From positions 218-64,217 of the forward strand of contig JBBTQO010000009.1 in assembly GCA_038065655.1 (NCBI GenBank): a stretch of 64,000 nucleotides of DNA, read 5' to 3'. Origin of the DNA: Patescibacteria group bacterium (lineage in GTDB: Bacteria > Patescibacteriota > Minisyncoccia > Phycocordibacterales > WO2-35-19). The stretch's first letter is position 1, and the number at the start of each line of letters is the position of its first letter. This document shows, piece after piece, positions 22,478 through 56,929 of the stretch. The notes beneath the pieces were generated by a model. That model saw nothing but the letters and a program-made list of their open reading frames with translations. It was not told where the DNA came from and ran no database searches. The translations under genes were made by a program, and so were the position numbers.

Positions 22478-22535
22478 TTTCCCTTCCCAGAAGATGACCT
22501 TTGAAGACCCTGCCTCAAAAGGTCATCTTCAAATT
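22478..22535 (+). terminator. Family-B post-stop hairpin with conserved loop (after tpiA)
   Basis: tttcccttcccaGAAGATGACCTTTgaagaccctgcctcaAAAGGTCATCTTCaaatt. Confidence 0.6.
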
Positions 22536-30285: not shown

Positions 30286-31203
30286 ATGAGCTTTAAATTA
30301 AAAATTAGGCTGATTATTCTAACTATCTTATTATTTCTAACTATCTTTTCATTTTATATTGCCTGGCGAGAGGAGGACAGAGGTATTTTGACAGTGGTTT
30401 TTTTAAACATTGGTCAGGGCGACGCTACCTTTATTGAAGGGCCAAATGGTAACCAAATTCTTATAGACGGCGGTCCGGGTAAGTCGGTACTTAGAGAATT
30501 GTCTAAAGTTATGCCTTTTTATGACCGAAGTATCGATGTTGTTTTGGCAACTCACGCTGACCAAGACCATGTTGGTGGATTGCCGGATGTTTTAAAAAAG
30601 TATCAAGTAAATATTTTTATGGAAACAGGAGTGGCCGGAGAATCTTCTTCTTATGAAGAACTTGAAAAAATAGTTGGAGAAAAAGAAAGTGCGAGTAGGA
30701 TTAAAAAAATATTAGTCAGAAAGGGTATGGAGATTGATTTGGGAGACGGGGCTATTTTGCAAATTCTTTTTCCCGATAGAGATCCCTCGGGCATGGAGAC
30801 CAATACCGCCTCAATTGTGGCCAGACTTGTTTATGGTGAAAATGAATTCCTACTTACTGGTGACTCGCCACAAGTTATTGAAAAATATCTGGTTTCTTTA
30901 GGTAGTCGAGAGTGTCAAGGGCAACCCTTGAAATGCTCCGGTCCCAAAGGGTTGCCCTTGACACTCGAAAGTGACGTGCTCAAAGCTGGGCATCATGGCT
31001 CAAAAACCTCAACCGGCGCAGTCTTCGTTTCAGCTGTTTCTCCCCAATATGTCGTCATTTCTGCAGGTAAAGACAATCGATACGGCCACCCCAATCAAGA
31101 AGTATTAGATATTGTTTCCAATTTTGGAGCCAAAATATTTCGCACCGACGAGTCGGGCCGCATTATATTCCAAAGCGATGGAGTAAATTTGGAAGTTAAA
31201 TAA
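30286..31203 (+). CDS. MBL-fold metallo-hydrolase, ComEC C-terminal-domain-like, carrying an in-frame palindromic insertion
   Basis: N-terminal TM. HADQDHVGGL (HxHxDH). ...VLKAGHHGSKTS. Residues ...RECQGQPLKCSGPKGLPLTLES are encoded by the 57-nt palindrome at 30910..30966. Confidence 0.7.
   Translation: MSFKLKIRLIILTILLFLTIFSFYIAWREEDRGILTVVFLNIGQGDATFIEGPNGNQILIDGGPGKSVLRELSKVMPFYDRSIDVVLATHADQDHVGGLPDVLKKYQVNIFMETGVAGESSSYEELEKIVGEKESASRIKKILVRKGMEIDLGDGAILQILFPDRDPSGMETNTASIVARLVYGENEFLLTGDSPQVIEKYLVSLGSRECQGQPLKCSGPKGLPLTLESDVLKAGHHGSKTSTGAVFVSAVSPQYVVISAGKDNRYGHPNQEVLDIVSNFGAKIFRTDESGRIIFQSDGVNLEVK
30910..30966 (+). mobile_element. in-frame palindromic mini-insertion element, copy 1
   Basis: Perfect 20-bp arms GAGTGTCAAGGGCAACCCTT / AAGGGTTGCCCTTGACACTC around the loop gaaatgctccggtccca. 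57 nt = 19 codons, inside a CDS. Confidence 0.7.
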
Positions 31204-31267
31204 TAACTCTAAAATGTGTTGTAAAATAAAGCTATTTTGTCATCAACTCAATATTATGCAATAATAC

Positions 31268-31296
31268 TTGACAAATGTATATCTTTTTGCTATACT
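31268..31296 (+). promoter_or_regulatory. consensus sigma70 promoter TTGACA-N17-TATACT (cassette E1)
   Basis: tacTTGACAaatgtatatctttttgcTATACT. Confidence 0.6.
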
Positions 31297-31335
31297 TATA
31301 TCAGATGGGGTTCAAAGAGCCCCTAAGGAGACACA

Positions 31336-31428
31336 ATGAAGATCAGGAAGTTGAAGAAGAATCGACAGGTGCCACCGGCACCGAAACCGATTGCACTTAT
31401 GCTTGCGAACGCCTCCGGTCGAGACTGA
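31336..31428 (+). CDS. 30-aa peptide ORF inside GC-rich transcription unit E1
   Basis: AAGGAG SD 5 nt upstream. MKIRKLKKNRQVPPAPKPIALMLANASGRD. About 150 nt of GC-rich sequence follows before the terminator. Confidence 0.35.
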   Translation: MKIRKLKKNRQVPPAPKPIALMLANASGRD

Positions 31429-31572
31429 CGCCCTGGGCGCCGGCCGACACATTTCACTAGAAAGGAGGTATAGTCCAATGGATTGAACAATTGAGTTGCG
31501 CCAACCCGCGGTACAAGGCACCGTGGTTGCCACAAAGTCCAGTGGTGTATCAGAAACTATGGGCAAAAACTA

Positions 31573-31620
31573 GGGGTCCTGTCGTCATTGAAAACGCAGG
31601 CCCTTTTTGTTTATATTTTT
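31573..31620 (+). terminator. intrinsic terminator of E1
   Basis: AGGGGTCCTG...CAGGCCCT stem followed by TTTTTGTTTATATTTTT. Confidence 0.5.
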
Positions 31621-31661
31621 ACTCTTGTCAAAAATTTTAATATTTTATATAATTTGAATAT

Positions 31662-32273
31662 ATGGAAGGTGTTCAAGGAGAATCAATAGAAGAATCAGGG
31701 GGATATAAACTTTGGAGACAGTCTGATAGCTGTATTGCTCGCTTCTTTCTTAGTGGCGACAAGAATAATCCGCCCGAACTCGAAGATGAATTATTTGAAG
31801 AAATAGTACGTAAAGGTCCAGATGAGTATGCATTGTCAGTGAGAGCATGTTCTCTAGGAGAACTAAAAGAGAACCCACCAAATGATTTAGTTATAGATTG
31901 GAAATACGCAAAGGACTACAATCTATATTTTGATGAGAAAAATTGTAGATGGATTTATTGGATTGAGGGGAATATTACTAATCCAGATCATGACCTGATT
32001 CAACAGGGAATAGAAAAAAGGAGGCAAAAGGGAATAACTCACTCAGCGTTTAGGTTTTTTTTAAAAAATCCAAAAAAATATATTGATAATTTTACTACCA
32101 AAAATTCATACTGCCCTTTTACAAATAAAGAGATAGGATTTATTGAAAAAGCAAGAGAATACTCAAGACATGGAGAATACGAATCTGAAGATGGTGGAGT
32201 TAGGCATGATTATGAATCACTGAAATGTCCTTGTGGTTGTGGCAAAAGTGCAGAAGAAATTATAAATGAATAA
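31662..32273 (+). CDS. hypothetical protein
   Basis: 203 aa, no recognisable family. C-terminal CPFT...CPCGCGKS. TTGTCA-N17-TATAAT promoter whose -10 ends 8 nt before the ATG (leaderless-like). Confidence 0.45.
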   Translation: MEGVQGESIEESGGYKLWRQSDSCIARFFLSGDKNNPPELEDELFEEIVRKGPDEYALSVRACSLGELKENPPNDLVIDWKYAKDYNLYFDEKNCRWIYWIEGNITNPDHDLIQQGIEKRRQKGITHSAFRFFLKNPKKYIDNFTTKNSYCPFTNKEIGFIEKAREYSRHGEYESEDGGVRHDYESLKCPCGCGKSAEEIINE

Positions 32274-32289
32274 TATATAAAAATTTTTC

Positions 32290-32375
32290 TATACACTAAA
32301 TAATCTTTGCTTTTTTGAGGGTGGCGTAGGCGCCGTTTTTTTGGATGGTTTTGAGTTTAACCGTATTGTTTTTAC
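32290..32375 (-). pseudogene. fragment duplicating the 3' end of rpmB (L28)
   Basis: The minus frame encodes ...KNNTVKLKTIQKNGAYATLKKAKII*. Plus-strand 32308..32353 is identical to 32943..32988 (the rpmB 3' end). Confidence 0.6.
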
Positions 32376-32473
32376 GGCTGATGAGGCAAATTTATCATGT
32401 TTAAAATAGCTCTCCAAATAACCCTTATTTTAAGCCACGCTTTGGTTTTTATAAAAAGAAAATGAAATTTTGC

Positions 32474-32502
32474 TTGACAAGAAAAGCATAGTATGCTATA
32501 CT
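32474..32502 (+). promoter_or_regulatory. consensus sigma70 promoter TTGACA-N17-TATACT (cassette E2)
   Basis: tgcTTGACAagaaaagcatagtatgcTATACT. Confidence 0.6.
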
Positions 32503-32564
32503 TATGTAAGATAGTACTCCCAGGCTTATGTCGGGAGGTATAAAGCAAAAAAAAGGAGCCAGTC

Positions 32565-32846
32565 ATGTATAGAGTAAGATTTGAACTGAATTTCCATTCC
32601 GCTGACACAACGGAGTGGCAGGATTTCATCAAGGCCGGGGCTGGTCGGATACGGACTCGGTGCGTGGGGTGGAGTGTAGATTCTCCTCAAGATAAGTTTG
32701 AAATATGGGAGGCTAGGTCTTCCAGACCATTTGTGATCATCATTAACACTCGTGATCACGAGGGTTTCGTCAGGACTGAAAAGGTCCTCGTGGCCACCTC
32801 GGAAAGGTGGCAAGACACTCCAGTCGAACACTGGAGAAAGTTGTAA
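32565..32846 (+). CDS. hypothetical 93-aa protein (cassette E2)
   Basis: AAGGAG SD 7 nt upstream. MYRVRFELNFHSADTTEWQDFIKAGAGRIRTRCVGW.... G+C-richer than its flanks. Terminator at 32855..32900. Confidence 0.5.
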   Translation: MYRVRFELNFHSADTTEWQDFIKAGAGRIRTRCVGWSVDSPQDKFEIWEARSSRPFVIIINTRDHEGFVRTEKVLVATSERWQDTPVEHWRKL

Positions 32847-32854
32847 GAGTTTTA

Positions 32855-32900
32855 GGGCGTCGTGTGGGTTCAAATCCTACCGACGCTCTTTCTTTTTATT
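32855..32900 (+). terminator. intrinsic terminator of E2 with T-arm-like loop
   Basis: GGGCGTCG-tgtGGGTTCAAATCCtac-CGACGCTC followed by TTTCTTTTTATT. Confidence 0.55.
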
Positions 32901-32919
32901 AAAAATTTTTAAAGTTTAT

Positions 32920-33162
32920 TTATATAACTCCAGCTTTTTTGAGGGTGGCGTAGGCGCCGTTTTTTTGGATGGTTTTGATGGCTCGAGTAGAGAGAGTCAG
33001 AGTAAAAGATTTGTTGAGTTCGGGCACGAAAATTTTCTTTTTTTGTAAATTGGCAAATTTCCTTGTATTGCCACAAGGATTAAACTGGGTGGCGCGGGTT
33101 CGGTTTGAATAGGAACCGCCCATCTGAGATGATTTTTTTGTAATTGCACATTCTTTAGCCAT
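32920..33162 (-). CDS. rpmB: 50S ribosomal protein L28
   Basis: MAKECAITKKSSQMGGSYSNRTRATQFNPCGNTRKFANLQKKKIFVPELNKSFTLTLSTRAIKTIQK follows the L28 pattern. Confidence 0.8.
   Translation of the reverse strand: MAKECAITKKSSQMGGSYSNRTRATQFNPCGNTRKFANLQKKKIFVPELNKSFTLTLSTRAIKTIQKNGAYATLKKAGVI
32943..32988 (+). repeat. direct repeat partner of 32308..32353 (3' end of rpmB)
   Basis: 46 nt identical. Confidence 0.65.
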
Positions 33163-33218: not shown

Positions 33219-33833
33219 ATGGATTTTTTGTTTATTATCATCATCCTTATAATGTCGGTTGTGATACATGAAGTTTCTCACGGTTATGCGGCACTCGCCC
33301 TTGGCGATTCGACTGCCAAGTATGAGGGACGATTGACTTTGAACCCTTTTTCTCATCTCGACCCAGTGGGCTCGGTTTTGGTGCCTCTCATTGGCTATTT
33401 TGCCGGAGGGTTTATTATCGGTTGGGCTAAGCCAGTCCCTTTTAATCCTTACAATTTAAGAAACCAAAGATGGGGTGAAGCTTTGGTGGCAATAGCTGGG
33501 CCTCTTTCAAATATTTCTTTAGCAATTATATTTGGACTATTTATACGATTGGCCTCCGATTATGGATTTATTAATCCAGCTTTTTTGAGTTTGGCGGGTT
33601 TCGTGGTGATGATAAATATCGTCTTGGCCATATTTAATCTGGTTCCTATTCCACCCCTTGATGGTTCCAAAATACTTTCAGCCTTTTTGCCTTATAAATG
33701 GCATGGTTTTATGCAAAATCTAGAAAAATTTGGTCTAATTTTAGTCTTTGTTTTTATATTTTTATTTTGGCCAGTGATGAGCCCGATTATAAATTTTCTT
33801 TTTACTTTTTTGATTGGTCAGCCAATGCTCTAA
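33219..33833 (+). CDS. M50-family (site-2-protease-like) zinc metallopeptidase
   Basis: HEVSHG (HExxH) in TM1, ...NLVPIPPLDGSKIL, polytopic. Confidence 0.7.
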   Translation: MDFLFIIIILIMSVVIHEVSHGYAALALGDSTAKYEGRLTLNPFSHLDPVGSVLVPLIGYFAGGFIIGWAKPVPFNPYNLRNQRWGEALVAIAGPLSNISLAIIFGLFIRLASDYGFINPAFLSLAGFVVMINIVLAIFNLVPIPPLDGSKILSAFLPYKWHGFMQNLEKFGLILVFVFIFLFWPVMSPIINFLFTFLIGQPML

Positions 33834-39931: not shown

Positions 39932-39989
39932 TTCCCTTCCCAAAGGGTGACCCTTGAAGATCCTGCCCCAAAGGGTCATCCTCAAATTT
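39931..39989 (+). terminator. Family-B post-stop hairpin (after fusA), stem with compensatory changes
   Basis: attcccttcccaAAGGGTGACCCTTgaagatcctgccccaAAGGGTCATCCTCaaattt. Confidence 0.6.
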
Positions 39990-56864: not shown

Positions 56865-56876
56865 TCTCATTCTTCA

Positions 56877-56929
56877 TTTCCCAGAAGATGACCTTTGAAT
56901 ATCCTGCCCCAAAAGGTCATCTTCAAATT
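56877..56929 (+). terminator. Family-B post-stop hairpin (after secY)
   Basis: tttcccaGAAGATGACCTTTgaatatcctgccccaAAAGGTCATCTTCaaatt. Confidence 0.6.

Follow-up and report, generated by a model that had tools for sequence, protein, structure and literature searches.

How did a second, truncated copy of the 3' end of rpmB, the gene of ribosomal protein L28, come to stand beside the intact gene, with a small G+C-rich cassette (E2) enclosed between the two ends? The locus lies in a 64,000-nt stretch of DNA, hereafter the window, whose closest genomes are those of Candidatus Zambryskibacteria (Paceibacteria, CPR). CPR bacteria have tiny genomes, most of them are uncultured, and little has been documented of the ways in which they transfer genes. 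The locus offers a rare view, at base resolution, of gene gain in a CPR bacterium. Its features are listed below in the order of their coordinates.

30286–31203, plus strand: MBL-fold gene, 305 aa (Pfam Lactamase_B, E = 8.6e-15), conserved left flank of the hotspot described below
30990–31117, plus strand: mosaic patch inside the MBL gene, ~24% divergence from empty-site strains, sides 99–100% identical
31268–31612, plus strand: E1, with a promoter (31268–31296), a G+C-rich 3' part and a terminator hairpin with T-run (~31573–31612)
31336–31428, plus strand: conserved small ORF of E1, 30 aa, with RBS
31625–32273, plus strand: ORF203 module, with a promoter-like site (31625–31653) and a 203-aa ORF (31662–32273)
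32297–32354, minus strand: truncated rpmB 3' end (…KTIQKNGAYATLKKAKII*), holding repeat copy 1 (32309–32354)
32355–32421, plus strand: probable decayed MBL 3' end (FNRIVFTADEANLSCLK*LSK*), 67 nt, starting at junction J (32354/32355)
32422–32506, plus strand: MBL-downstream homology region, including the E2 promoter (32474–32502)
32509–32898, plus strand: predicted E2 transcript module, with a 5' hairpin (32516–32539) and a terminator hairpin with U-run (32855–32897)
32565–32846, plus strand: ORF93, 93 codons, RBS AAGGAG at 32553–32558
32920–33162, minus strand: intact rpmB (L28), 80 aa (Pfam Ribosomal_L28, E = 1.8e-11), holding repeat copy 2 (32933–32978)

The 46-nt repeat and the two rpmB ends

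The direct repeat GCTTTTTTGAGGGTGGCGTAGGCGCCGTTTTTTTGGATGGTTTTGA is perfect, with 46 of 46 positions identical between the copies at 32309–32354 and 32933–32978 and a spacing of 624 nt. It is the only long perfect repeat reported for the 64 kb of the window, and chance cannot be the source of such a match. The duplication of the rpmB 3' end had been recognized in an earlier note made from the sequence, which had placed the first copy 1 nt and the second copy 10 nt away from these positions. That note had also taken the upstream copy for a C-terminal fragment of L28 and nothing more, and the minus-strand translation of copy 1 (…KLKTIQKNGAYATLKKAKII*) agrees with this. Its description of E2 as a G+C-richer cassette with its own promoter and terminator was likewise borne out. 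The segment between the repeat copies has a G+C content of ~50% vs. 30–37% in the surroundings; the promoter at 32474–32502 is sigma-70-like and near-consensus (11 of 12 matches plus TG), and a terminator hairpin lies at 32855–32897. Neither a tRNA nor a tmRNA was detected at the site by ARAGORN. For annotation, the short L28-like ORF fragment should be treated as a scar and not as a gene.

Outside the perfect repeat, imperfect similarity between the two copies runs 12 nt past copy 1, to position 32297, giving 58 nt overall. The truncated copy ends with …GCA AAG ATT ATT TAG (KKAKII*). Its last 15 nt match the rpmB end of another species, L023, at 12 positions, the end of empty-site strains (see below) at 10 positions, and the working end in the window at only 8 positions. 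In L023, E1 is followed directly by an intact rpmB, the L28 of which ends with KKAKII, the type found in the fragment of the window. Since the last 15 nt fit L023 best, we consider the fragment to be the gene end that belongs with E1. The working rpmB has a different history at its very end. Over 215 nt (32933–33147) it is identical to that of the empty-site strains, and both encode the same L28 protein, while three synonymous differences (32923, 32929, and 32932) all fall within the last 13 nt of the gene. The earlier note had regarded the downstream copy as the true end of rpmB. This copy does lie inside the intact gene; however, the original gene end of the resident is most likely the upstream copy, of the KKAKII type as in L023, pushed aside by the E2 unit. 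The last four codons and the stop codon of the working gene (32920–32932) would then have come with the E2 unit.

The MBL/rpmB junction in related genomes

Empty sites were found in four Logan contigs (L001, L003, L004, and L105) with an L28 identical to that of the window and with flanks 90–99% identical. In all four, the MBL-fold gene and rpmB are convergent and overlap by 8 nt, and there is a single rpmB end; the junction reads …GGAAGTTAAATAACACCTGC and then the 46-nt core, or, as a string, GTTAAATAACACCTGC + core. The whole of 31204–32919 (1716 nt), comprising E1, ORF203, the rpmB fragment, and E2, is absent from these sites. An identical 8-nt overlap of MBL and rpmB occurs in five distant species (L024, L026, L040, L089, and L096). 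Because it recurs in distant species, we consider the overlap to be the ancestral state and the filled states to be insertions. The earlier note had expected syntenic genomes to show a single rpmB end and to lack the segment from 32.3 to 32.9 kb. The single end was confirmed, but the missing DNA reaches beyond that segment. Copies of the duplicated fragment without an insert, which would have spoken against an insertion, were looked for in the related genomes, and none was found. A 7-nt motif, TAAATAA (31197 and 32296), was considered as a target duplication of an E1-ORF203 insertion and rejected; it is the MBL-stop/rpmB-stop overlap motif, kept in the rpmB fragment.

Look-ups of exact proteins trace the window to groundwater metagenomes from Hainich. 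Exact-protein look-ups with L28, ORF93, ORF203, and SOD, together with the L28 cluster listing, returned filled and empty states only. Neither a donor genome nor an intermediate (E1-ORF203 with an intact KKAKII-type rpmB, or E2 alone) was found in these searches, and an E1 allele with an intact rpmB of this type was found solely in L023.

The gene order M50 peptidase-rpmB convergent with MBL-SOD is kept in most of the 80 related species representatives; in the window, the MBL-fold gene stands after SOD and a ComEC gene (DUF4131+Competence). The rpmB-MBL gap varies from −8 to 4576 nt across the 71 species in which both genes could be placed, and the gap contents are almost all unrelated between species, in DNA comparisons as well as in translated searches. 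Since the flanks are conserved while the gap ranges from −8 nt to 4.6 kb with unrelated cargo, the junction is, as judged from these comparisons, a gene-exchange hotspot of Zambryskibacteria and relatives. Across many Paceibacteria its cargo comprises orphan modules and orphan proteins, toxin-antitoxin genes (HicA/HicB in L092), and a reverse transcriptase with a PLD-like protein (L073); a radical-SAM protein and a GNAT acetyltransferase were present in L028. One population, that of L023, carries an IS element, an IS30-like gene (HTH_38 + rve) at the 5' end of E1 (L109 and L110). None of the inspected ORFs of the hotspot gaps resembles a site-specific recombinase, and the gaps of 14 related loci had no match in Rfam.

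The flanks of the hotspot are mosaic. Compared with L001, the MBL gene is 99.2% identical up to 30989, 78.5% identical at 30990–31117, and 100% identical at 31118–31203, and the M50 gene is only 91% identical. These mosaic flanks show frequent homologous exchange with diverged relatives. Hotspots of horizontal transfer between core genes are a concept of comparative genomics, and the MBL/rpmB junction resembles them in that conserved flanks with mosaic divergence enclose variable, mostly unrelated cargo. It differs in its cargo, which in the window is made up of G+C-rich orphan modules that are very small and each bring one gene with its own promoter, and in the host, a CPR bacterium with a tiny genome.

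Origin of the duplicated rpmB end

The DNA to the right of junction J bears on the origin of the E2 unit. Segment 32355–32421 gives an in-frame match to the MBL C-terminus GRIVFKSDGVNLEVK* of relatives. It shares 25 of 33 nt with the MBL end of L023 (shuffle p ~0.001; ~0.03 vs. other gap segments), and its terminal TAA falls where the MBL stop of L031 aligns. The profile HMM alone was not significant (E = 2.7 window-wide); among 13 close relatives tested, similarity to the MBL ends of L031 and several others, as well as to that of the window, was at chance level, and tblastn with the MBL end of the window itself gave no match to the segment. The segment is probably the 3' remnant of an MBL gene. 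The next 85 nt (32422–32506) align by blastn with L031 (74% identity over 85 nt, E = 1.4e-9) at positions 2–86 past the L031 MBL stop, and L031 has no rpmB fragment in this MBL-downstream region. At J, the truncated rpmB end thus meets what is probably a truncated MBL end, back to back and with the usual order of the two reversed. The locus, with MBL, E1, ORF203, and the rpmB fragment to the left of J and the MBL fragment, promoter, E2, and rpmB to its right, reads as a tandem of two alleles of one hotspot. Between the intact MBL end and the remnant there is no similarity in DNA, but the rpmB stretch is identical at 46 of 46 nt; the two tandem copies therefore differ in age or source.

We propose that a copy of the MBL/rpmB hotspot from a relative, ~0.62 kb in length, was probably added to the resident locus by one crossover in the 46-nt stretch, i.e., by Campbell-type insertion-duplication. 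The starting point would be a resident allele MBL-E1-ORF203-rpmB with an L28 ending with KKAKII. The donor allele would consist of an MBL gene ending with …NRIVFTADEANL…, the E2 unit, and rpmB, and the unit taken from it would comprise the last ~20 MBL codons, the MBL-downstream promoter region, the E2 gene, and the last ~19 rpmB codons. At the DNA level, a donor-type locus can be queried with the string AACCGTATTGTTTTTACGGCTGATGAGGC. Circularized, the fragment of 624 nt would recombine with the chromosome by a single homologous crossover inside the conserved rpmB stretch. The crossover is placed in rpmB because this stretch is identical at all 46 positions, while the MBL end and the remnant are without similarity. 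The left copy would keep the old gene end of the resident and run into the donor MBL remnant at J. The right copy would continue into the intact rpmB, whose final four codons would be of donor origin, with the encoded residues unchanged relative to the empty-site strains; the restriction of the synonymous differences to the last 13 nt of rpmB is consistent with a donor end on this copy. We infer the order of these events, the circular intermediate of 0.62 kb, and the identity of the 67-nt MBL remnant; the closest strains are without all of the modules.

By this route, small foreign units would be stacked at one conserved junction via a stretch of ~46 nt, without a dedicated mobile-element enzyme and with the essential gene left intact. 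The repeats should also permit exact loss of the insert. Recombination between them would excise E2 and leave an intact rpmB ending with KKAKII, and the predicted E2-less junction reads CTAAATAATCTTTGC + 46-nt core + TGGCTCGAG. The earlier note had called the duplication an insertion footprint at the rpmB 3' end. As a mark of insertion this is supported by the empty-site relatives with their single rpmB end, but the footprint is probably the scar of a stacked second hotspot allele.

Campbell-type insertion-duplication proceeds by a single crossover of circular DNA that carries a fragment of the target locus, and is used in mutagenesis of naturally transformable bacteria. The rpmB locus resembles its products in several ways: the homology segment is duplicated directly around the insert, one of the copies is cut short and continues into the opposite end of the incoming fragment, rpmB stays intact as the fragment includes its 3' end, and the insert could be lost again via the repeats. 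Unlike in such mutagenesis, the event is natural, the homology is only ~46–59 nt, the incoming DNA would be a hotspot allele and not a plasmid, and the circle is conjectural. Homology-facilitated illegitimate recombination (HFIR) in natural transformation is a related route (PMC3240628). It shares with the proposed event an end anchored by short homology and another end joined without homology, and the ComEC gene of the host stands beside the locus. If the donor MBL gene read like that of its relatives, J may have ~3 nt of microhomology (TGA). In HFIR, however, the usual outcome with a linear fragment is replacement or deletion of recipient DNA; for the anchor to be duplicated, the donor must be circular or there must be two recipient copies. 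The class of mechanism is already well known; the remarkable features are how clearly the scar can be read and the presence of the hotspot in a CPR bacterium.

Other explanations of the repeat were weighed against insertion-duplication. An assembly chimera, joining two strain alleles via their common 46-nt stretch, might be suspected since filled and empty alleles both occur in related samples and since the repeat is exactly where Logan contigs (inferred k = 31) break. Yet J, where the core is followed by GTTTAACC…, is a unique sequence that needs spanning reads, and it is present with 99.95–100% identity in contigs from five separately assembled Hainich groundwater samples. Four of these five contigs span both repeat copies. 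Coverage of the J-bearing samples was low in some and 53x in others, and both copies are spanned by L002/L010 and by long contigs. Because J recurs in contigs of five separate assemblies, we consider the arrangement not to be chimeric, and the likelihood left to this explanation is very small. Smaller still, close to nil, is that of a target-site duplication left by a transposase when E2 moved next to rpmB; a target duplication was one reading of the earlier note. Direct repeats do border the insert, and an IS30-like element is present in the hotspot of the L023 population. Known target-site duplications of transposons are short and of fixed length (~2–14 bp) and arise from a staggered cut. 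The repeat of 46 nt far exceeds them; the insert of 578 nt has no transposase and no terminal inverted repeats at 32355/32932, and at its right edge copy 1 abuts the probable MBL fragment and not DNA of an element. Moreover, the sequences beyond the core are still alike as diverged rpmB ends, which points to homology of gene ends and not to a staggered cut.

Two further explanations accept the locus as genuine and dispense with transposition, and we regard each of them as unlikely. E2 could be a miniature integrative element or what remains of a larger one, with a recombinase encoded elsewhere, an attB in the rpmB 3' end, and the repeats as attL and attR. Tyrosine recombinases integrate islands in the 3' ends of tRNA, tmRNA, or protein genes. 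As in such islands, perfect direct repeats derived from a gene 3' end border E2, and the insert supplies a replacement end, restoring the last four rpmB codons with different codons; the E2 module also occurs in an unrelated context in L011. But no integrase or transposase was annotated by Pfam within ~6 kb on each side, and the left arm, which should be attL, resembles an MBL end followed by L031 MBL-downstream DNA, i.e., DNA of the locus itself, at a place where no rpmB fragment is present in L031. Nor is the core used again: a duplicate of the rpmB end was seen in 0 of 80 related species, though the hotspot is occupied in most of them. Scans of viral contigs with the 46-nt core and with the E2 26-mer AGTGGCAGGATTTCATCAAGGCCGGG gave no match, nor did tblastn against phages, and blastn against plasmids returned just a 63-nt AT-rich chance match. 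A recombinase working in trans may nevertheless have acted here. Tandem duplication in situ of a segment with one boundary within the MBL 3' end and the other within the rpmB 3' end, with later replacement of the cargo of one copy by homologous recombination, has about the same small chance. The joint of the rpmB and MBL fragments is what such a duplication would leave, and mosaic recombination is frequent around the locus. Against it, the rpmB stretch matches at every position but the MBL remnant and the resident MBL end are dissimilar as DNA, the two cargos are unrelated and the two rpmB ends are of different type, and more steps are required than for insertion-duplication.

Cargo of the stacked modules

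The insert of the window consists of three stacked modules, E1, ORF203, and E2. E1 and E2 are orphan G+C-rich modules, and as structured orphans they are the most open-ended part of the locus. The promoter scan gave 11 of 12 consensus matches plus TG for the E1 promoter. The sole homologue of E1 is in L023, where it occupies the corresponding position and its small ORF differs by synonymous changes; one scan of JGI metagenomes with the E1 peptide pattern returned the L023 organism alone. The protein encoded by ORF203 matched only itself among 5.8 billion clusters and among 1.84 billion representatives. Pfam gave no significant match for it (DUF6527, E = 0.055, under the cut-off), and PHROGs and PADLOC gave none. 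Searches of Rfam, both at the gathering threshold and at E ≤ 10, assigned neither E1 nor E2 to a family. A weak match of the E2 terminator (E = 1.8, not significant) had suggested a tRNA-like (mascRNA) structure, and this candidate was rejected.

The only ORF of the E2 insert supported as a gene is ORF93. It has one homologue, P0002 in L011/L012, of equal length and with 71% amino acid identity. The start, the stop, and the position of the RBS are kept between the two, dN/dS is 0.27, and third-position changes are in excess; for these reasons ORF93 is probably translated. Neither ORF93 nor its neighbor in L011 had a significant match in Pfam, PHROGs, or PADLOC, and the AlphaFold2 model of ORF93 had a pLDDT of 58. 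The RNA of E2 is predicted to be unusually structured, with a fold z-score of −4.5. All 99 predicted pairs are kept between E2 and its homologue, with 8 double-sided changes, in a structure that was derived from those same two sequences; the conserved pairing is only a lead. In L011, the E2 module stands in an unrelated context, behind a different promoter, and is bracketed by two similar hairpins.

The recurrence of such modules could be read in another way. The MBL/rpmB junction of Paceibacteria might be a dedicated "expression site," in which small, G+C-rich, highly structured orphan modules (E1, E2, and others) sit behind a strong conserved promoter and are swapped with no integrase involved. 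E2, with its 5' hairpin, ORF93, and T-loop-like terminator hairpin, would then be a hairpin-bounded mobile module of a new kind, and the duplication of the rpmB end its by-product. We consider this a long shot, less probable than an integrative element or a tandem duplication. Integron cassettes, which each have an attC site and are handled by an IntI integrase with attI, are not a close parallel: no integrase is present here, the modules bring their own promoters, and the hairpins at the module ends are terminator-like. E1 and E2 were also considered as paralogues, which was rejected, the likeness of the two being confined to their promoters. The strong promoter, TTGACA-17-TGcTATACT, is conserved between the window, L023, and L031.

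Promoter and cargo of the variable junction

Nearly the same promoter, TTGACA-17-TGCTATACTTAT, was found at 31268-31296 and 32474-32502 of the window, in the gap of species L023, which has an E1 homologue, and in the gap of species L031, which carries DNA like the promoter region of E2. It lies just 3' of the MBL-fold gene, with different cargo behind each copy. Other species had the following cargo at this hotspot:

L073 gap, a reverse transcriptase adjoining a PLD-like protein, together with an ORF of 574 aa
L092 gap, a HicA/HicB pair
L028 gap, a radical-SAM protein and a GNAT acetyltransferase

Module E1 and ORF203

The first two modules of the insert, and an IS30-like gene beside E1 elsewhere, are:

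31268-31612, module E1: a strong promoter, a 30-aa ORF with a ribosome-binding site, a G+C-rich RNA and a terminator
31662-32273, ORF203: an open frame of 612 nt that lies in AT-rich DNA and is preceded by a promoter-like site
L109 8-958 and L110 1-120 (contigs of the L023 organism from further samples), an IS30-like transposase gene (HTH_38 and rve)

The 30-aa ORF of E1, which has its own ribosome-binding site, encodes MKIRKLKKNRQVPPAPKPIALMLANASGRD, and its counterpart in L023 is kept with synonymous changes. The G+C-rich RNA portion is approximately 180 nt long with 55% G+C. A comparison of E1 with Rfam gave no match, and its fold z-score was only -1.6. In L109 and L110, the 5' end of E1 is precisely where the transposase gene lies; in L023 the promoter occupies this place. 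No homologues of ORF203 were detected among 5.8 billion protein clusters or among 1.84 billion representatives.

Module E2 transcript and hairpins

The E2 module and its hairpins were compared with L011, the only other context of this module:

32509-32898, E2 transcript (homologue at L011 683-1072)
L011 503-540 and 1028-1068, two similar hairpins containing GCGCCTGGCGGGTTTATCCCCGCTCGGCGC and GCGCCGCGCGGGTTTTATCCCCGTCCGGCGC, respectively

Compared with its shuffled versions, the E2 transcript has a much stronger fold (z = -4.5). Hairpins inside ORF93, the 93-codon ORF of E2, are retained in the L011 homologue through eight double-sided changes, a weak test with two sequences only; one of these changes alters the protein from DHE to GPG. 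E2 may serve as an mRNA and, at the same time, as a structured RNA.

The similar hairpins of L011 stand on both sides of the module and may be terminators typical for the lineage or boundaries of the module. The G+C-rich gene that precedes the upstream hairpin is unrelated.

The terminator hairpin of E2 (window 32855-32888; loop GGTTCAAATCC) resembles a tRNA acceptor/T-arm minihelix. Its Rfam hit to mascRNA was not significant (E=1.8).

Mosaic flanks and other repeats

In the MBL-fold gene, a 128-nt patch (30990-31117) was 24% diverged from the closest strains, with identical flanks, and the M50 peptidase gene (33219-33833) shared only 91% identity with them. Such sharp mosaic patches point to recombination with diverged relatives. 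The low-coverage Hainich contig L005 matched the window at 99.5% in its middle, while its ends (1-182 and 1243-1286) were unmatched; it may represent either another variant or a chimera.

The M50 peptidase gene also holds a third, imperfect copy of the rpmB-end repeat (33569-33596, 24/28 nt), at a distance of 646 nt from the second one. This third copy includes the exact 15-mer TCCAGCTTTTTTGAG, encodes INPAFLSLAG and probably arose by chance.

A 57-nt palindromic repeat family has three members with 86-100% identity:

22479-22535, palindromic repeat
39932-39988, palindromic repeat
56873-56929, palindromic repeat

The repeat contains AGAAGATGACCTTTGAAG followed by CAAAAGGTCATCTTC and is REP-like or terminator-like.
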